The translations under genes were made by a program, and so were the position numbers. From a virus (Duplodnaviria; Heunggongvirae; Uroviricota; Caudoviricetes): DNA of 64,000 bases. The notes below the pieces were generated by a model. That model ran no database searches and was not told the origin of the DNA. It saw nothing but the letters and a program-made list of their open reading frames with translations. Each line of letters begins with the position of its first letter. Within the stretch, counting starts at the first letter, position 1. Location: positions 9,557 through 73,556 of IMG/VR virus record IMGVR_UViG_2579778873_000001; one strand, given 5' to 3'. Shown here one piece after another: positions 52,254 through 57,410 of the stretch.

Positions 52254-52707
52254 AACGTCTCCTTTTTACACGCGCGACCATCTCTCGGTTAAACCGATAG
52301 AGATGTCGAAACTTCGTATTAATTAAGGGTTACAGCCTGAGCGGCTATATGATGAATTGAAAGGAGTTGTGGCGGTGGTGCCTCCACCTGCCAGGTCAGC
52401 CACGCCCGGCGACGACACTTATCAGAACCTCAATGAATGAAAATGGCTTCGCCACGAGCGCATAGCCGCAATTACCACAACGGAAACGGCGCTCGCGTTA
52501 ATTAAACGCCTTTTCCTGTTGTGCGCCGTACTCTTCCGGCTGTCACACCGAATCGCCAGGATGGTGAGTCCTCGGTCCGACGATATGAACGGGGCTTGCA
52601 CATTCCGGCTACCTGGTTTGTTGCCTGAGCTAGGGGAAAAGATAACCCCTTTAACGTCACCAGACCGCTAACGACGCATGTGCCATACGCCGTGTTACAA
52701 CCAAATA

Positions 52708-52783
52708 TGGTGGCCCCTACCGGACTTGAACCGGTGACCGTGCGATTATGAGTCGCCAGCTCTAACCACTGAGCTAAAGGGCC
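52708..52783 (-). tRNA. tRNA with CAU anticodon (ileX-like tRNA-Ile2, or Met)
   Basis: 76-nt cloverleaf read by hand: acceptor GGCCCTT/AGGGGCC, anticodon loop CTCATAA, T-loop TTCAAGT, encoded CCA; close to E. coli ileX as recalled. Confidence 0.8.
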
Positions 52784-52937
52784 AGATTACTGTTAATTCC
52801 GCTTACGCTTTTTGCCAGGACCGCGTAAGGCTTTTGCTGCTTGCTCGACCCCATATGCAACCACCAGCAGAAATAAAAATGTCCACCAAGGGTTCTTGTC
52901 GGCAAACGTCCAAAATTCCATCATGTTCTCTATTTGG

Positions 52938-53765
52938 TTATTTCACCGGAACAAACGGAACAGCGGTATTACTGGTCATATACTGCGGTAGCGTTCCGTT
53001 CCATTTGTTGATCGCTTCCAACTCCATAACGCCGGGGTTCTGGCGCAGAGCCTCACCGCGTAAACGAATGGCATCAGCTTCAGCCTGGGCTTTTGTGCGA
53101 ATGGCATCGGCCTGTCCGGCAGCTTCTGCGCGCAGCATGTTGGCTTCTGCTTCGCGTTGCTTGACTTCCTGCTCGCGTTGCAGAGTTTTCTGGTTCGCCG
53201 TGACTTTGGCATTAATGCTGTCGATAACGGTTGGCGGGTACTCCGGCTTGCCCACATATGAGAGGCTCATTACCTGAATACCGATGGGCGTCATTTCTTC
53301 CTGGATGTCTTTAAGAGCTGCATCCAGCAGTTCAGACTTGCCACCGTCGATAAATTTGTCGGTGGTCATTTTGCTGGCCAGTCGGTTAAGTGCGTCGGCA
53401 ATCTTCTGGCGCAGGTCGGTGTCGGTAATGTCATCCACGCCTTTGCGGTAGGTCTGAAATACAGTTGTGACTTTTGCCGGATCAACCTTGTAAGCTACAC
53501 CAATGTGGTAACCAATTGTTGTCCCGTCGCTCATTTGGAAGCTGAACGGATCATCATAGGTCTTCATTTGCTTAAAGGTCGGGAAGATATAAACTTCTGT
53601 GTTCCAGCCTGTCCAGTAGCGACCAACGCCAACTACTTCGCCGACACCTTTATCATCCCCCAGCTTATTTACTTTGATCCCTACATTGCCTGGTTCTACC
53701 CGGTCGCATCCGGTCAGACATAAAGAACCAAAAATAATCGCTGCACTAATCAACGTTTTTTTCAT
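52938..53765 (-). CDS. SPFH/band-7 family lipoprotein (Plp-like)
   Basis: Lipobox LTGC after a signal peptide; C-terminal Ala/Glu/Arg-rich coiled-coil typical of SPFH proteins. Confidence 0.6.
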   Translation of the reverse strand: MKKTLISAAIIFGSLCLTGCDRVEPGNVGIKVNKLGDDKGVGEVVGVGRYWTGWNTEVYIFPTFKQMKTYDDPFSFQMSDGTTIGYHIGVAYKVDPAKVTTVFQTYRKGVDDITDTDLRQKIADALNRLASKMTTDKFIDGGKSELLDAALKDIQEEMTPIGIQVMSLSYVGKPEYPPTVIDSINAKVTANQKTLQREQEVKQREAEANMLRAEAAGQADAIRTKAQAEADAIRLRGEALRQNPGVMELEAINKWNGTLPQYMTSNTAVPFVPVK

Positions 53766-53983
53766 TAATCAATTTCCTGGATTTTTTTGCGAAAAAAGAC
53801 TACTGCAAAAGCCGGGTAAATGAGCGCGAGAAGGACTCCCAACAATACAAGTATTGTGCTGTCAGATGAGATCATATTTGGCAAAAGCCAAACATACAGA
53901 ACCAGTGACACAATCAAACAGAGGACGACATAAATATATAGCCGCACCCATAGCGTTCGACATTTGTTCGGATTGTTCTGCAT
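53765..53983 (-). CDS. Small integral membrane protein (Upl-like)
   Basis: 72 aa with two hydrophobic helices; coupled to the lipoprotein gene. Confidence 0.45.
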   Translation of the reverse strand: MQNNPNKCRTLWVRLYIYVVLCLIVSLVLYVWLLPNMISSDSTILVLLGVLLALIYPAFAVVFFRKKIQEID

Positions 53984-54246
53984 CCTCTCACTCCATTATT
54001 TAACGAATAAAAAAGCTGCGGTGCCTGGTGCCTCCAGGTGACGTTAACCAGTTAACAATTAACGCCGGGATGTTTGATTTAACCACTAATAAGGATTGTT
54101 TTAACTGTTCCGCGTGCGCTTAGCCGCATTCACCGCAATGGTAAGAGCACTTGGCTGGCTGGGCGGCGATGACGCCTGTACGCATTTGGTGATCCGGTTC
54201 TGCTTCCGGCATTCGCTTAATTAGCCAAATACTCTTAACGTTGCGC

Positions 54247-54332
54247 TGGCGGAGAGTAATGGAATCGAACCATCATCGCTTGCGCAATGGGACGGTTTTC
54301 AAGACCGCTTGAGCACCATGCTCCCTACTCTC
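54247..54332 (-). tRNA. tRNA-like element with Ser-type anticodon loop (UGA); non-canonical, possibly degenerate
   Basis: Acceptor GGAGAGT/ACTCTCC plus G and CCA, anticodon arm CGGT-CTTGAAA-ACCG, long variable hairpin with GCAA loop, T-loop TTCGATT; but 5-nt D-loop and A at position 8. Confidence 0.3.
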
Positions 54333-54474
54333 CGGCCGTTGTGGTGGCCGGTACTGAATCTCCGGCATACGGTGCAGCCAATTAGGACTACGGACGATCA
54401 CCGCTCGCGAAAGGGAAGATTTGCGGCCGCATTTCCCTAACATCCAAGAAAGCTATCGCATCAGTCTGCGAATC

Positions 54475-54574
54475 CACCACAACGTTGAGAACACTGGTTG
54501 TCACGCTGCCTCGCGACATTTATTCATAGATTGGGATATGATCCCGTTACGCCAATGTTCTCAACGTTGTGGTG
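54475..54574. repeat. 19-bp perfect inverted repeat flanking a 62-nt loop
   Basis: caccacaacgttgagaaca (54475-54493) and its reverse complement (54556-54574); right arm runs into a 12-nt copy of the tRNA-Thr 3' end. Confidence 0.5.
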
Positions 54575-54798
54575 CCGGTTACGGTTCCGGCCAGGCCTCT
54601 TCCTCAACGGGGTGTTCTCCATACGGACTACCGTTTATTGGTCGTTCCTGCGGTTTATGTTGTGAAGCCAGATGCTTATCTTCTGGTTGCTTCAAAGAGC
54701 TGCACTTCATCACAACGGTAAGGGTACTTCGTAGGGATTCGAACCCTCTGCCAAGCACGGCGATCTCCGACGTCGCAAAATACCCTTACCTGTTGTGT

Positions 54799-54874
54799 TG
54801 GTGCCGGTTAACGGACTCGAACCGCTGACATCCTGCTTACAAGGCAGGCGCTCTACCAACTGAGCTAAACCGGC
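54799..54874 (-). tRNA. tRNA-Thr (UGU)
   Basis: 76-nt cloverleaf: acceptor GCCGGTT/AACCGGC, anticodon loop CTTGTAA, T-loop TTCGAGT, CCA encoded. Confidence 0.85.
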
Positions 54875-54876
54875 AT

Positions 54877-54952
54877 TGGCGATGGTGGATGGATTTGAAC
54901 CATCGACCCGTTGATTAACAGTCAACCGCTCTAACCGCTGAGCTACACCATC
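54877..54952 (-). tRNA. tRNA-Asn (GUU)
   Basis: 76-nt cloverleaf: acceptor GATGGTG/CACCATC, anticodon loop CTGTTAA, T-loop TTCAAAT, CCA encoded; 2 nt from tRNA-Thr. Confidence 0.85.
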
Positions 54953-55456
54953 ACTTGCCGGGTACGTCTCCGGCGAGGGCTTCCACCTCCGTATGCTTTT
55001 CGGCGCACCGCGCCCTGGCTGCAATTCAGTAACAGGGGATGCATAACCCTGGCTTCCAGCGTGATTAGCGCCTTCAGCATGACGGGATATACCCGTAACC
55101 AACAAACTTTCCCATATACCATCAAGCAATGGCTGTTACGCGGGAGGGACGTAACAGGTAAGGGCGCTGACCAGAAAGACCTGACCCTTCTCATTCATCT
55201 GGTTAATCACACCAGCGCCCTTGCCTGTTATGCCTCCCCGTTCCCTAATACACAGACGGGGACACTCTGCGGTCGATTTTTTGACGGGGGACGACTCATA
55301 CCCCGTGGCGTCAGGCTTCTTAGGCCGCTACCATCATCAGATCATCGTTTGCATTTACTTTAATGGTCGGGTTCTAAACCGCCGCAAAGTCGCTAACCAT
55401 GACGAAAACCCTAAAAAAGCCCACCCGAAGATGGGCAAATACGCTACATCTCACAC

Positions 55457-55533
55457 AAGAAAGAAGCCGACTGCCTGAACTGGATTCACTTTCAAATGCC
55501 CGCTGAAAGGGATCACAAGTCGGCTTCTTTCTT
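55457..55533. repeat. 16-bp perfect inverted repeat (long hairpin) in a gene-free region
   Basis: aagaaagaagccgact / agtcggcttctttctt around a 45-nt loop; no flanking T-run. Confidence 0.5.
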
Positions 55534-56171
55534 GATGCGGCACTCTCTCCGCCCGTCACCGCTCTGTCTCGGTTGTCGCGTTTGCCACGCCAGCCATAAC
55601 GAGGTTTAAAGTCTTTGCACGTTCCCATCACTCGACTGCCGTCTGTGGCTGTTCGTTGCAGCGGGGGTGCCTCCCCCTGGGGATGTCCCCGGCCTTACCC
55701 CATTCTTTCAAGACACAATGCAAGGCCACATCCGCATAGGTGCATTACCGCAACATTAAGGAGACTCAGGGCAAAAGGTAACCGCCACAAAAATCCCTAT
55801 GCCTCCTTAATGTTGAAGATGTGCATTGATGATTAGATGCAGCATGTACCGTTACTCTCTGCCGGACCATCATCAATGAACACCTTAAAAAGACCTTCCG
55901 TGGCTCAACATGTACTGTCGTTTACTCCGCAAAGTGCTCTCTCTGAAACCACTTTCCGCACTAAACCTGCTGAACTTTGGCCTGCACGGTGCCAAAGCGT
56001 GCTCTTGCGTTACTATACTTTTCTAACGCTTTAATTTGTTAAATGCTGGTGGGCGAACAATAACCAATAAGTGACTATCAAGCCCAGCAAGCGAAACGTG
56101 GGTGCCGCCCACCAGCAAGGAAAATTCTATGTTAAGTTACCTTCACAATCAATACATTCGAATCGTAATTT

Positions 56172-56190
56172 TAGATTTCTAACACATTAT
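56172..56190. promoter_or_regulatory. C1-type operator motif (TAGATTTCTAACACATTAT)
   Basis: Overlaps the stop of 56187..57410; oriented toward the gene-free region and tRNA cluster. Confidence 0.45.
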
Positions 56191-57410
56191 TTCCCGTAAA
56201 GATCTTCTACACCCCCATTCTTCTTATCCCATTCGTTCGCCCATACCCGGCAAGCGTCAATGATTTCCTGACGACGATCTCCTTGCATGAACGGAATGCT
56301 TTCATGGAAACAGCTTGGAATGCAGGCCACACTGAATACAGTATCAAACTCCGTCTGCTTGATTGCCTCCAGCGTCTCCGGACGCATTTTTAATTCATCG
56401 ATTGGCGCATCCTTAGAGTCCATAATCCGGCGATATAAGCGCGGAAAATCCGTCTCCAGGTACGCCATAATTTTATCTGCGAGACATTCGTCTATGTCGG
56501 TATTCCAGTCCTTTTCGAAGCCCGGCAGGCGATAGTAAAGCGGCGTTCCCCACACCGATGGGATCACATCCATCGTTAACAGGCGATTGGTTCTGATTTG
56601 TTGATGGTAATTAGCCGTCAGCAGTGCTTCGCCACGCTGCCCAGTTTCCGCAACCAGGCCGTGCGGATACTCATGGATGTAGGCAATGGCATCCCGCCCA
56701 TCATACATAAGTGGAAATGTCTCTGGTCTTTGTCCCATGCCACAAGCACGGTTCAGATCGTGACCAAGCTGTGAGCACTCTCGCTTTAATGTTTCGATAA
56801 TGCTCTGCGCTGTAGCCAACTTTTTACGCAGTGTGACGCCTTCGCCTTGATAATCAATGCATTGCTGATTGAGCCTGGTTAAACGCTCTTTTAGTTCCCG
56901 GCGCTCTCTTTTCAGCGTGCGGTTATCCTTCTCCGCAACATCCAGCCGCTTTGTCAGGCTGGGCGGATAGTCTTTTTTGTAACGGTTCAAATCGGCTTCG
57001 GCAGATTTACGCAGTGTATTTGCCTGTTCAAGACGCGCTTCCAGATTGCCGATCTCATTACGCATATTCGCGGCAAATTGATTAACTGCATCACCCAGGC
57101 TTTCAACTGTCGCTGATACGCCTGTGACTTGCGAAAAACGGCTCAAGCCATCATTAACGGCTTGTTGGTATTCCTCAAACTGATCCACCAGCTTATTGTA
57201 ATCAACTGCCCCATCATCAAGCAGCTTGTTGATTTCCGCCACCAGGTTATCTGTAGTGGCAATGACACTCTCGTGCAGTCGCTTTGACAGGTCATCACCC
57301 GGATTCCGTTTCTGTATAAGAGCGATTTGTGTGCGCAGCGTTTCAATTGCTGTCGAGATAATTTCCAGATTAGAAGTATCAGTGTGTTGACTCATTGCTG
57401 TTCCCGTCAC
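56187..57410 (-). CDS. Coiled-coil protein with C-terminal globular domain, operator-controlled
   Basis: 407 aa; long N-terminal coiled-coil; operator 10 bp upstream. Confidence 0.45.
   Translation of the reverse strand: MTGTAMSQHTDTSNLEIISTAIETLRTQIALIQKRNPGDDLSKRLHESVIATTDNLVAEINKLLDDGAVDYNKLVDQFEEYQQAVNDGLSRFSQVTGVSATVESLGDAVNQFAANMRNEIGNLEARLEQANTLRKSAEADLNRYKKDYPPSLTKRLDVAEKDNRTLKRERRELKERLTRLNQQCIDYQGEGVTLRKKLATAQSIIETLKRECSQLGHDLNRACGMGQRPETFPLMYDGRDAIAYIHEYPHGLVAETGQRGEALLTANYHQQIRTNRLLTMDVIPSVWGTPLYYRLPGFEKDWNTDIDECLADKIMAYLETDFPRLYRRIMDSKDAPIDELKMRPETLEAIKQTEFDTVFSVACIPSCFHESIPFMQGDRRQEIIDACRVWANEWDKKNGGVEDLYGK

Follow-up and report, generated by a model that had tools for sequence, protein, structure and literature searches.

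A probable tmRNA-derived element among structured RNA modules in the ban-type operon leader of a D6/P1-like phage-plasmid

Background

The C1-controlled ban operon of phage P1 (Pban/Op72, upl/plp, tciABC, ban) has a leader in which, in this order, the promoter Pban, a region annotated as 'dicF-like', genes for tRNA-Asn and tRNA-Thr, the tci genes, tRNA-Ile and ban are found. A search of the literature on the P1 ban leader and on P1 small RNAs returned nothing relevant to the structures described here.

Four groups of described RNAs resemble parts of the locus reported below. The tmRNAs (ssrA; RF00023, permuted RF04321, RF01849-51) are usually about 360 nt long with four pseudoknots, and carry a tRNA-like domain (TLD) as well as a message with the resume context (A/U)NUAAAU-GCA-AAC-GAU-GA; in E. 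coli the tag is a start-less frame of 10 codons that begins ANDD and ends Ala-Ala-UAA. CDS-less, TLD-only tmRNA-like RNAs are encoded by mycobacteriophage DS6A and by some plastids, and the DS6A form has been reported to inhibit host tmRNA (PMC4131195, PMC11915505). The STnc100/PasD prophage small RNAs (RF02076; bioRxiv 10.64898/2026.05.13.724894) are multi-stem RNAs that start with GGUGAAU, are closed by UGCGGUG...CACCGCA pairing and include a CCUGG-AGGCA-CCAGG hairpin and a U run. Finally, tRNA-Sec and the allo-tRNA-like tRNAs have an extended D stem with a loop of 3-5 nt, no U8, and a long variable arm.

Organization of the locus

The window, that is, the whole 64,000-nt stretch of DNA that was analysed, belongs to a D6/P1-like phage-plasmid. 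Its region 54000-56186 (the locus) is 98% identical to phage D6, with the D6 match beginning at 54017, the 3′ edge of an STnc100-like element; positions 54017-55439 are 93% identical to P7 and are partly shared with P1. The tRNAs and the flanking CDSs are all encoded on the minus strand. The locus is the modular, minus-strand leader/spacer region of a ban-type operon and contains a promoter-like site, a D6-specific leader of about 700 nt that ends in an intrinsic terminator, a tmRNA-like element, tRNA-Asn and tRNA-Thr, three diverged phage hairpin modules, tRNA-Ser(UGA) and an STnc100-like element. Its anatomy, conservation, covariation and codon-like variation, and the absence of conserved ORFs, were computed directly. 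The features are as follows, in minus-strand order.

56124..56152, minus: candidate sigma-70-like promoter, TTGATT, 17-nt spacer, TAGAAT (consensus scan only)
55440..56120, minus: hairpin-rich 5′ leader with repeat arms, specific to the D6 lineage, fold z-score -7.04
55413..55436, minus: intrinsic-terminator-like hairpin, GCCCAUC-UUCG-GGUGGGC then U6 (terminator scan)
55235..55411, minus: tmRNA-like element without tRNA-like domain, 177 nt (cross-phage conservation, pseudoknot covariation)
55320..55352, minus: tag reading frame, GCA AAC GAU GAU CUG AUG AUG GUA GCG GCC UAA, ANDDLMMVAA-stop
55143..55239, minus: long hairpin, diverged module copy with 27-nt arms CAUAACAGGCAAGGGCGCUGG...CCAGCGCCCUUACCUGUUACG
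54877..54952, minus: canonical tRNA-Asn (GUU) (ARAGORN; Rfam tRNA 74.5 bits)
54799..54874, minus: canonical tRNA-Thr (UGU) (ARAGORN; Rfam tRNA 74.9 bits)
54708..54797, minus: hairpin module with T-arm insert, stem CACAACAGGUAAGGGUA / UACCCUUACCGUUGUG, fold z-score -5.07
54659..54716, minus: conserved hairpin GUUGUGAUGAAG...CUUCACAAC, 80-86% identical in Sashavirus and P22-like phages
54475..54581, minus: pseudo tRNA-Thr 3′ end and 23-bp hairpin, UAACCGGCACCA fused to CACCACAACGUUGAGAACAUUGG / CCAGUGUUCUCAACGUUGUGGUG
54452..54477, minus: putative second STnc100-type 5′ module copy, GGUGGAU-UCGCA-GACUGA-UGCGA (by-eye comparison)
54247..54333, minus: tRNA-Ser (UGA) of an unusual phage class (ARAGORN; Rfam tRNA-Sec 46.6 bits)
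54017..54137, minus: STnc100/PasD-like element (Rfam RF02076, 40.4 bits)

Compared with the P1 ban leader, the matched pieces of 54110-55439 are about 93-94% identical and retain the same order and strand. P1 also has the terminator hairpin of the 'dicF-like region', the tmRNA-like element, a hairpin designated I3, both tRNAs and the T-arm hairpin. The two loci differ in that the leader 5′ of the terminator is much longer and of a different (D6) type in the window, that the window, like P7 and D6, has the additional tRNA-Ser(UGA), and that SPFH and membrane genes replace tciA/tciB. With Rfam at gathering score, only tRNAs were found in the whole window and likewise in 18 related loci. At E values up to 10 (52500-57000 and 54950-55560), the matches beyond tRNAs were to sub-threshold tRNA-Sec, STnc100 and tmRNA models, with no convincing YrlA; the DicF family gave no match in these same scans.

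Promoter-like site, leader and terminator

The promoter-like site (56152-56124) sits just downstream of a pmgS-like CDS, a position that corresponds to that of Pban in P1, itself at the end of the upstream CDS. The scan that found it returned fewer sites in the sequence than in shuffles, and the site is offered as a candidate start for a leader transcript. The leader that follows is absent from P1 and P7. Ten D6-like loci, the most distant 83% identical, retain its hairpins (56117-56044, 55889-55813, 55815-55751 and 55534-55456), and those at 55815-55751 and 55534-55456 show three compensatory pairs each while their loops diverge. A GC-rich block at about 55730-55520, which includes a GGGGG-AGGCA-CCCCC hairpin, is nearly invariant. 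The predicted terminator at 55436-55413 matches the consensus of an intrinsic terminator, with a 7-bp stem containing 5 GC pairs and a UUCG loop; it is conserved in P1, P7 and D6 and forms the 3′ end of the P1 region annotated 'dicF-like'. Weak matches to MicA and STnc240 are due solely to the terminator shape at 55413-55436.

A tmRNA-like element lacking the tRNA-like domain

Directly downstream of the terminator lies the tmRNA-like element (55411-55235), which probably derives from tmRNA. Its 5′ part comprises a hairpin UUUUCG..CGA and an extended hairpin ACUUUG-CGGUUUAGAACCCG-..UAAAGU; its 3′ part comprises the resume context AAAGUAAAU, the tag frame, pseudoknot a (55306-55272) and pseudoknot b (55269-55236). 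The resume context with the first codons, AAAGUAAAU-GCA AAC GAU GAU, is identical to the ARAGORN tmRNA resume consensus, the 18-nt context being exact. The frame has no in-frame start codon and an in-frame UAG 8 codons upstream, is colinear with E. coli ssrA positions 79-129, and ends in hydrophobic residues followed by Ala-Ala-stop. As in tmRNA, the stop codon is inside a small hairpin and pseudoknots follow directly 3′ of the frame, here two of the H type; the 5′ segment AUAGUUUUCG..CGAC also recalls the D-loop analogue GGAUUCGAC. A PK1-type pseudoknot was not found 5′ of the frame, where the extended hairpin occupies the corresponding part, and the 5′ arm of the 55143-55239 hairpin overlaps the 3′ strand of pseudoknot b. 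The preliminary description had passed over this element, which contains no long inverted repeat.

The tag frame occurs in 19 distinct nucleotide versions, each of 10 codons plus UAA, and its length is constant even where 6-nt blocks have been rearranged between versions. Codons 1-4 are invariant by construction, the search pattern having fixed them. Codons 5-8, the four consecutive variable codons, are hydrophobic and retain U at the second position, and positions 9-10 are synonymous GCN codons in which three or four different third bases occur. The small GGC/GCC hairpin around the stop codon could itself be reflected, in part, in the GCN-GCN conservation.

Covariation of the two pseudoknots was assessed from pair counts in the alignment, in place of a single-sequence flexible pseudoknot search that was rejected as too permissive, 36% of shuffles scoring equally. 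Paired cells amount to 84.7%, against 34-54% with the partners slid, and 13 of 18 pairs have changed on both sides. The covariation score of 0.421 compares with at most 0.216 for slid partners and 0.17 for shuffled alignments and was reached by none of 500 shuffles; one row of the alignment contributes letters only in helix 1 and the 5′ columns of helix 2.

The element is found in P1-, T1-, N4- and Vi1-like phages, with 70-85% conservation in N4-like, T1-like, Vi1-like and other unrelated phages, and in 660 of 5426 complete E. coli genomes, in none of which is it annotated. No paper on it was found in the literature on tmRNA-like phage elements, and the text-form supplements of the tmRNA database paper mention no phage entries.

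Several properties set the element apart from tmRNA. It is about half as long (about 177 against 360 nt), has two pseudoknots instead of the usual four, and is without an acceptor stem, G3-U70, T-arm or 3′ CCA; it is also carried, unlike the usual tmRNA, by Enterobacterales phages and plasmids whose hosts own ssrA. ARAGORN reported no tmRNA in the window, in loci L001-L010 or around any of 70 family copies, and the same run did detect permuted and standard tmRNAs around other tags. The tmRNA covariance models gave sub-threshold matches in the window and four other phages (23-33 bits against a gathering score of 47), no Rfam family reaching threshold on the element, and alignment to E. coli ssrA covered the message region only, with a score not above shuffles.

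The missing tRNA-like domain, the sub-threshold models and the insignificant ssrA alignment would all be expected if the likeness were a coincidence or the trace of a decaying relic, and the element a structured leader or base-pairing small RNA whose 'tag' is never decoded; small RNAs are common at such sites, and in P1 the element adjoins the 'dicF-like' region. This reading is nevertheless unlikely, because a relic would not be expected to retain a frame of 10 codons and UAA through the rearrangement of 6-nt blocks, the constant second-position U and the synonymous Ala codons, an exact 18-nt resume context, and conservation across phage families that otherwise share little.

An unusual tRNA-Ser and STnc100-like elements

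The tRNA-like element with a Ser-type anticodon loop noted earlier at this locus is called by ARAGORN as tRNA-Ser(tga), minus strand, at 54247-54333. It has A8 and G9, a G10-A25 mismatch, a D stem of 3 bp extended to 5 bp with a loop of 3-5 nt, a long variable arm, G73 and an encoded CCA. The four stems and the variable arm all covary among 36 distinct homologues; A8 and G9 never vary, and only an AUGG-like remnant of the D-loop is left. In phages D6, Cyrano and phita32 the gene already carries a tRNA-Ser annotation. Canonical U8 and A14 and a normal D-loop are lacking. Covariance models, proposed at the outset as a check on this element, gave an ambiguous answer, with no RF00005 match, absence from the gathering-score scan and tRNA-Sec as the best match in the clan (46.6 bits against 47). 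Judged nevertheless by the covariation of its family, the element is a real tRNA, and its class is one that covariance models under-call.

The extended D stem, small loop, absent U8 and long variable arm are shared with tRNA-Sec and allo-tRNA-like tRNAs. Unlike tRNA-Sec, however, the element has the anticodon UGA (reading UCA), not UCA, and 7/5 rather than the bacterial 8/5 acceptor/T geometry, supported by GAGAG/CUCUC and GUUGG/CCAAU variants. The G73 or U73 of the class and its long variable arm fit serine identity.

The STnc100-like element ends in CCUGG-AGGCA-CCAGG, CACCGCA and a U run; it shares with the STnc100/PasD RNAs the UGCGGUG...CACCGCA closure, this hairpin and the U run, and also their GGUGAAU start and their prophage context, beside TerB-type genes in D6 and P1. 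It differs from the family in scoring below threshold (40.4 bits against 47) over part of the model (positions 31-147 of 206), and is a putative small RNA. The putative second 5′ module (54452-54477) was judged by eye against the Rfam STnc100 consensus and GUGAAUGCGCAGGCUGAUGCGC, a sequence that comes after 18 hairpin units in other phages.

Spacer hairpins and the origin of the inverted repeats

All inverted repeats listed in the preliminary description were recovered by a repeat search, most of them somewhat longer than first given. The repeat recorded as 19 bp has 23-nt arms that are 96% complementary (54475-54497 / 54552-54574), the 16-bp repeat is a perfect one of 17 nt (55456-55472 / 55518-55534), and the 12-13-bp repeats are 21-nt arms at 86% (55751-55771 / 55795-55815) and a perfect 12-nt pair (56044-56055 / 56106-56117). 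Two further long pairs have 27-nt arms (55143-55169 / 55213-55239) and 21-nt arms (55813-55833 / 55869-55889). Minus-strand fold z-scores against dinucleotide shuffles are -7.24 for 54460-54590, -5.07 for 54700-54800 and -7.04 for 55405-56125; the structures of the locus are well above chance expectation.

Three hairpins of the locus are diverged copies of a hairpin module with the consensus CACAACAGGUAAGRGC...GCYCUUWCCGUUGUG, which was found in more than 120 viral contigs and 76 distinct units, with conserved stems and hypervariable inserts. On one flank the units have tRNA 3′ ends, the end of pseudoknot b or terminators, and on the other tRNA 5′ ends or STnc100-like sequence. The 54475-54581 copy (-60 kcal/mol, z-score -7.24) differs from the consensus in both arms, which have changed in step. 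The copy beside tRNA-Thr encloses a T-arm mini-tRNA, with a core consisting of a 7-bp acceptor-like helix, CGACGUCGGAGAUCGCC, a short loop and the T-arm GAGGG-UUCGAAU-CCCU (T-arm repeat family D1); there are 21 distinct copies of this T-arm hairpin, and the acceptor-like helix covaries. A hairpin of the 54659-54716 type comes after the module in 7 distinct units. A YrlA or bacterial Y RNA was rejected for the T-arm hairpin, the only YrlA match scoring 19.9 bits against 69 and lying over the two true tRNAs, and the annotations flanking the D6, P1 and P7 loci compared include no Rsr (Ro60) gene.

Processing signals, small RNAs and scars of tRNA-cassette recombination had been put forward as three possible readings, each of which fits part of the evidence. 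The first holds to the extent that the inverted repeats form stems within conserved RNA modules that separate tRNAs and other RNA units, and the second in that the STnc100-like element and the terminator-ended hairpin look small-RNA-like. As to the third, the '...ACCGGC(C)ACCA-CAACG' junction occurs three times (54810-54793, 54581-54565, 54354-54337), as if a tRNA-Thr-end and hairpin cassette had been duplicated; the 12-nt copy of the tRNA-Thr 3′ end already noticed is exact (54570-54581), and a third, related copy lies at 54337-54354. The tRNA-like element, by contrast, is no scar, being a member of the large covarying phage tRNA-Ser(UGA) class with its Sec-like D-arm.

Tandem duplication and illegitimate or homologous recombination of tRNA cassettes, acting at the DNA level with no RNA function, would also account for the T-arms or tRNA-like pieces in 8 of the 76 hairpin inserts, for the differing tRNA content of relatives (Tyr in Ro157c2YLVW, Ser adjacent to Thr in Cyrano) and for homology between D6 and the window that breaks exactly at a module edge. 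That the repeats are mainly such scars is nonetheless not likely, given the compensatory changes that keep stems while loops diverge and fold z-scores far from random. Moreover, very different phages have an identical bulged A, mismatch and U-G wobble in the 19-bp stem, which argues for selection on the folded form. Recombination fits the reading of the locus as structured RNA modules as an account of their origin, and fails as a complete account. The same modules reappear, reshuffled, in unrelated enterobacterial phages, and the conserved stems and tRNA-end junctions are therefore also recombination joints.

A tRNA-like partner for the tmRNA-like element

The T-arm hairpin (54797-54708) raises the possibility of a two-piece tmRNA, with the tmRNA-like element as its coding piece and this hairpin, or some other phage or host tRNA-like RNA, as the acceptor. 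The hairpin core resembles a TLD in its GGAGAUCGCC D-loop analogue, the YUGGNA before the T-arm and its covarying 7-bp acceptor-like helix. In all P1/D6-likes the two are linked, the hairpin lying 588-690 nt 3′ of the tmRNA-like element, and in four other phage contexts they are immediately adjacent, with the hairpin twice upstream (permuted order) and twice downstream (standard order); in addition, pseudoknot b is directly followed on its 3′ side by a tRNA or tRNA-like gene in Bp4 and L079. Against this, the helix has U3-G70 instead of G3-U70 and runs on into a long stem, leaving neither a free 3′ end nor CCA, and no complementarity was found that would join both pieces. ARAGORN in tmRNA mode (129 contexts), the Bp4 and CS01 flanks and T-loops within 400 nt yielded no consistent partner; about half of 25 representatives have no T-loop within 400 nt of the element, and CS01 lacks one altogether, so that the only known decoding route for a start-less tag frame is not obviously available. 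A two-piece tmRNA of this kind is accordingly very unlikely.

Like the DS6A and plastid RNAs, which come from a mobile element and from organelles, the element appears to have kept only one functional half of a tmRNA. It is the opposite half, message and pseudoknots, that is kept here. The T-arm hairpin may be an analogue of the TLD-only RNAs, but is without alanine identity or a free CCA end.

Protein-coding readings

It is extremely unlikely that the locus encodes small proteins (plus-strand Upl and Plp, as in P1, or further short ORFs), even though upl and plp are annotated here in P1, a 135-aa plus-strand ORF 94% identical to Plp is retained in the window and several ORFs of 80-139 aa are present: the plp-like ORF is antisense to tRNA-Thr and hairpins, its variable columns (19/17/25 at the three codon positions) show no excess at the third position, and 10 of 24 distinct homologues have it interrupted, the 85-aa minus-strand ORF (55374-55631) meets an early TGA in relatives, no ORF of the locus, the plp-like one included, has a Pfam match, and the gene tables of three D6-like plasmid records, incomplete by design, list no CDS within it. 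The 85-aa, 83-aa and plp-like ORFs were rejected on these grounds (Pfam, stops, codon-position data), and P1 'plp' is probably not a gene. The earlier view that the region has no credible ORF is thus borne out, none behaving like a gene.

Interpretation

Taken as a whole, the locus is likely to be a modular, non-protein-coding 'RNA island' of structured RNA modules on the minus strand, and we think that the region is one processed polycistronic RNA precursor; its transcript, processing enzymes and function we infer from the sequence. Transcription would begin at the promoter-like site 56152-56124, or arrive by read-through from pmgS, and would partly stop at the intrinsic terminator 55436-55413. 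Read-through would cross the tmRNA-derived element, tRNA-Asn, tRNA-Thr, the three hairpin modules, tRNA-Ser(UGA) and the STnc100-like element, and the RNA would then enter the membrane/SPFH genes, tRNA(CAU) and ban. The long inverted repeats would form the stems, of about 20 bp, of the conserved spacer hairpins; stem length suggests RNase III as the enzyme that would cut them, and RNase P and 3′ processing enzymes would presumably cut the tRNA ends, releasing the tRNAs and stable structured small RNAs.

The tmRNA-derived element would have lost the alanine-accepting tRNA-like domain and kept the resume signal, a degradation-tag frame of 10 codons that looks translated, and two pseudoknots. As a tentative proposal, it may act on trans-translation, through the host machinery (ribosome, SmpB or S1), either by competition or as a coding piece dependent on a tRNA-like partner. 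A functional element would be the first message-only counterpart to the TLD-only tmRNA fragments already known, and would point to a phage strategy directed at ribosome rescue or tag-directed proteolysis. It is decidedly doubtful that stalled host ribosomes decode a split or TLD-less tmRNA of P1-like and many other enterobacterial phages with the help of a separate tRNA-like partner. Were this so, that partner would be the phage T-arm minihelix, a phage tRNA encoded nearby or the host tmRNA-SmpB; rescued proteins would receive a phage tag (ANDD, four hydrophobic residues and AA) and not the host ANDENYALAA, and the phage would re-programme host ribosome rescue and tag-directed proteolysis, or evade them.

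More generally, the shared scaffold and hypervariable inserts of the spacer hairpins suggest that phage RNA cassettes (tRNAs, small RNAs and tmRNA pieces) are processed or recombined by a common, previously undescribed system. P1 is a workhorse phage in which this region has so far been read as a leader, two tRNAs and two doubtful ORFs, and an unannotated tmRNA-like element in about 12% of complete E. coli genomes has a practical consequence for their annotation.

Locus identity and gene context

The stretch of about 2.2 kb without genes around tRNA-Asn and tRNA-Thr (54000-56186) belongs to a known kind of locus, the tRNA-bearing ban leader of P1 and D6. By sequence comparison, 53900-56300 shares 98% identity with Escherichia phage D6, P7 matches 54017-55439 with 93% identity, and P1 matches only pieces of that interval, at about 94%. 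Related DNA occurs in more than 1000 plasmid records, in 105 of which most of the query is covered. The minus strand carries all features of the stretch and its flanks:

57410-56187, minus strand: pmgS-like CDS
55411-55235, minus strand: tmRNA-like element, 177 nt
54952-54877, minus strand: tRNA-Asn
54874-54799, minus strand: tRNA-Thr
54797-54708, minus strand: T-arm hairpin
54333-54247, minus strand: tRNA-Ser(UGA)
54137-54017, minus strand: STnc100-like match
53983-52938, minus strand: 72-aa ORF and 275-aa SPFH/Band 7 CDS (ORF and Pfam search)
52783-52708, minus strand: tRNA(CAU) (ARAGORN)

In the P1 record, the leader of the ban operon, which C1 represses, occupies the counterpart site, and the order there is Pban/Op72, 'dicF-like region', tRNA-Asn, tRNA-Thr, antisense upl/plp, tciABC, tRNA-Ile and ban; P7 and D6 share this layout. 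Between 52938 and 54017 the window is unlike D6, in that the 72-aa ORF and the 275-aa SPFH/Band 7 lipoprotein-like CDS replace the TerB-like tciA/tciB of D6/P1. The joint of this swap is at 54017, a module edge, and the same gene pair is found in phage Ro157c2YLVW and plasmid pF8704-2_2. In the record of phage D6 (NC_050154; L001 3231-3936), tRNA-Ser, tRNA-Thr and tRNA-Asn are listed on the plus strand in locus orientation, whereas ARAGORN finds them on the minus strand, where all neighbouring CDSs lie; the deposited annotation looks like a strand error.

Absence of protein-coding genes

The preliminary description had listed inverted repeats and tRNA-end copies in a region with no credible ORF. 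A repeat search finds every one of these repeats again, most of them longer than first stated, and the lack of coding capacity is borne out by broken frames, by the absence of codon-position bias in the Plp-like ORF, by the lack of any Pfam match for the ORFs tested in the stretch, and by the gene tables of relatives; those of three D6-like plasmid records, in a table incomplete by design, list no CDS inside it. In three relatives, codon 4 of an 85-aa ORF (55631-55374) is a TGA stop. On the plus strand, 54421-54828 encodes a homologue of P1 Plp (94% amino-acid identity) antisense to tRNA-Thr and the hairpins. P1 plp is probably not a gene, because an excess of variation at third positions was sought and is absent (variable columns 19/17/25 by codon position) and 10 of the 24 distinct homologues have a broken frame. 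In P1 itself (L002 3067-3636), the strand opposite to the hairpin modules is annotated with upl and plp ('putative lipoprotein'), which overlap tRNA-Thr. Minus-strand RNA of the stretch is unusually stable against dinucleotide shuffles, with z = -7.24 for 54460-54590, -5.07 for 54700-54800 and -7.04 for 55405-56125.

A tmRNA-like element without a tRNA-like domain

A sensitive search of phage genomes with 54953-56186 as query revealed that 55217-55410 is 70-85% conserved in unannotated DNA of very different phages, namely N4-like phages (Bp4, ECBP1), Drexlerviridae (CS01), Ackermannviridae (Magnus), the 47-kb STGO-35-1 group and Aeromonas phage pAh6-C. The alignment reveals ...AAAGUAAAU GCA AAC GAU GAU CUG AUG AUG GUA GCG GCC UAA, in which a start-less frame for ANDDLMMVAA comes directly after a tmRNA resume context, with an in-frame UAG eight codons upstream. 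Several observations point to descent from tmRNA. The resume string is identical to the consensus that ARAGORN gives for the resume site of genuine tmRNAs in the same scan, and the Rfam models tmRNA_permuted, alpha_tmRNA and beta_tmRNA give sub-threshold matches in the window, Bp4, CS01, Magnus and STGO-35-1.

A 16-mer scan of viral contigs recovered 70 copies with a 10-codon tag (ANDDLMMVAA, ANDDVVLMAA, ANDDLMLMAA and others), in 19 distinct nucleotide versions that each comprise 10 codons and UAA. While codons 1-4 are set by the search pattern itself, codons 5-8 are hydrophobic throughout (U at the second position, or GCN), and the third bases of the last two Ala codons take three or four different identities. 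The tag stop codon is followed by two H-type pseudoknots (a and b). In a 23-row alignment their pairing holds in 84.7% of cells, versus 34-54% with slid partners, and in 13 of the 18 pairs both partners have changed; the covariation score of 0.421 compares with at most 0.216 for slid and 0.170 for shuffled alignments, and is reached by 0 of 500 shuffles. These figures are conservative because some subfamilies are out of register.

With E. coli ssrA, colinear alignment is limited to the resume context, tag, stop and CCUG. ARAGORN detects no tRNA-like domain around any of the 70 copies, and the same run found permuted and standard tmRNAs around other tags. The element at 55411-55235, a tmRNA-like RNA without a tRNA-like domain, merits experimental follow-up; no description of it was found in Rfam 15 or in the searchable literature, the coverage of which is incomplete. 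The 16-mer scan also returned 27 ARAGORN tmRNA calls, almost all of the permuted type, with one standard (for example, L018, L022, L024, L047 and L125), mostly on contigs with metagenome-style identifiers and with tags that include ANDDSFTPMALAA and ANDDFAPVDYALAA. Such calls may represent genes carried by phages, or host ssrA located where a prophage ends.

Among complete E. coli genomes, 660 of 5426 carry the element (582 places on plasmids, 140 on chromosomes), and in these 660 it is never annotated. Across 185,579 species-representative genomes the tag pattern is confined to Escherichia, Pantoea and Rouxiella. T1-like members have a consensus promoter about 10 nt upstream, and the element can therefore be the 5′ end of a primary transcript in these phages. 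In Bp4 (L007), two odd tRNA-like genes (1412-1490 and 1782-1853) lie on either side of the element: a 'tRNA-Ala(cgc)' that begins directly behind a TATAAT box, and, immediately 3′ of pseudoknot b, a 'tRNA-Cys(aca)' whose T-arm weakly matches T-arm positions of the tmRNA model.

It is possible that the T-arm hairpin serves as a separate tRNA-like partner of the element. Its core (a 7-bp acceptor-like helix, CGACGUCGGAGAUCGCC, a short loop, GGCA, and a T-arm GAGGG-UUCGAAU-CCCU) resembles the tRNA-like domain of tmRNA, and the acceptor-like helix covaries. The hairpin lies 588-690 nt 3′ of the element in all P1/D6-like genomes and abuts it in four other contexts, twice upstream and twice downstream. 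However, the helix has U3-G70 and not G3-U70, there is no free CCA, and a T-loop is absent within 400 nt in about half of 25 element representatives.

A tRNA-Ser(UGA) with a Sec-like D-arm

ARAGORN identifies 54333-54247 as tRNA-Ser(UGA), the Rfam scan reports no tRNA (RF00005) match there, and the D6 record annotates a tRNA-Ser with the remark that tRNAscan-SE made no amino-acid call. Scanning viral contigs for the anticodon arm yielded more than 119 loci, including 36 distinct full sequences of 84-93 nt that share the same odd design: A8 and G9; a D arm with a G10-A25 mismatch and three Watson-Crick pairs, lengthened to 5 bp and capped by an AUGG-like loop; a long variable arm; G49 paired with U65; G or U at position 73; and an encoded CCA. 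Across these 36 sequences covariation is seen in each of the acceptor, D, variable and T stems, and two T-stem variants favour the ordinary 7/5 geometry over a 9/3 fold. The sequence is thus a true tRNA that had been annotated before, and it belongs to a class of phage tRNA-Ser genes whose D-arm is Sec-like. The Ser-type anticodon loop and odd D-arm noted in the preliminary description stand; the option of a recombination scar does not hold for this element, since 36 distinct homologues covary. With the tRNA-Sec model it reaches a score of 46.6, below the gathering score of 47.

Hairpin modules and the STnc100-like element

Three diverged copies of one hairpin module are found among the long hairpins of the window (55239-55143, 54797-54708 and 54574-54475), the last with both arms altered in step. 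The stem of about 19 bp (CACAACAGGUAAGRGCAUU / AGUGCYCUUWCCGUUGUG) keeps a bulged A, one mismatch and a U-G wobble. Its 5′ arm alone occurs in more than 120 viral contigs, and the 76 distinct units extracted have hypervariable inserts of about 30-160 nt. Their 5′ neighbours are tRNA-Thr 3′ ends, the pseudoknot b end of the tmRNA-like element or terminator U-runs; their 3′ neighbours are tRNA 5′ ends, GUGAAUGCGCAG (the start of STnc100-like sequence; 18 units) or AUGAAGUGCAGC (7 units), the last of which also follows a hairpin unit in the window. This widespread scaffold deserves experimental follow-up.

The junction '...ACCGGC(C)ACCA-CAACG' occurs three times in the window, and on this basis the sequence beyond the 3′ end of tRNA-Thr seems to consist of three diverged repeats, each made of a tRNA-Thr end, a hairpin and an STnc100-type start, with tRNA-Ser apparently placed between repeats two and three. 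The third repeat includes the STnc100-like match, which is sub-threshold in Rfam (40.4 bits versus 47), and D6 homology ends at its 3′ edge. STnc100 and PasD are prophage small RNAs near TerB-type genes (bioRxiv 10.64898/2026.05.13.724894). Spacer pieces (54653-54728, 54550-54656 and 54338-54483) have 75-88% matches in unannotated DNA of Sashavirus, P22-like Salmonella phages, Citrobacter phage phiNP and Klebsiella phage BUCT_49532, matches which indicate that RNA modules are exchanged widely.

The D6-specific leader

The segment 56120-55440 is confined to the D6 lineage. Relatives at 83% identity retain its four long hairpins and terminator, with compensatory changes and divergent loops. Within it, a block of about 210 nt (~55730-55520, minus strand) is nearly invariant even in relatives 83% identical elsewhere, and no ORF or known RNA family explains it. 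The block contains a GGGGG-AGGCA-CCCCC hairpin with the same loop as CCUGG-AGGCA-CCAGG of the STnc100-like element. Two D6-like plasmids (L347 and L326) combine the D6-type leader, including a homologue of hairpin 55534-55456, with a P1-type 'dicF-like' insert, about 100 nt long, that immediately precedes the shared terminator (alignment A4 columns 691-803). Rfam gave no DicF match in the window region searched.

A proposed modular RNA precursor

The region, in which modules, their conservation and covariation, and an absence of coding signal are all observed, is best explained as a polycistronic precursor RNA that codes for no protein and is composed of exchangeable modules. The earlier proposals (processing signals, small RNAs or recombination scars) are supported in part, and the tRNA-like element proves to be a genuine covarying tRNA-Ser. 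The transcript would use the candidate promoter and terminator, and RNase III and RNase P would process it at the spacer hairpins. For the tmRNA-derived piece, an interaction with the trans-translation machinery is favoured because the tag frame varies like translated sequence. Itself without a tRNA-like domain, this RNA could act as a competitor or decoy, or as a coding piece with a separate partner.
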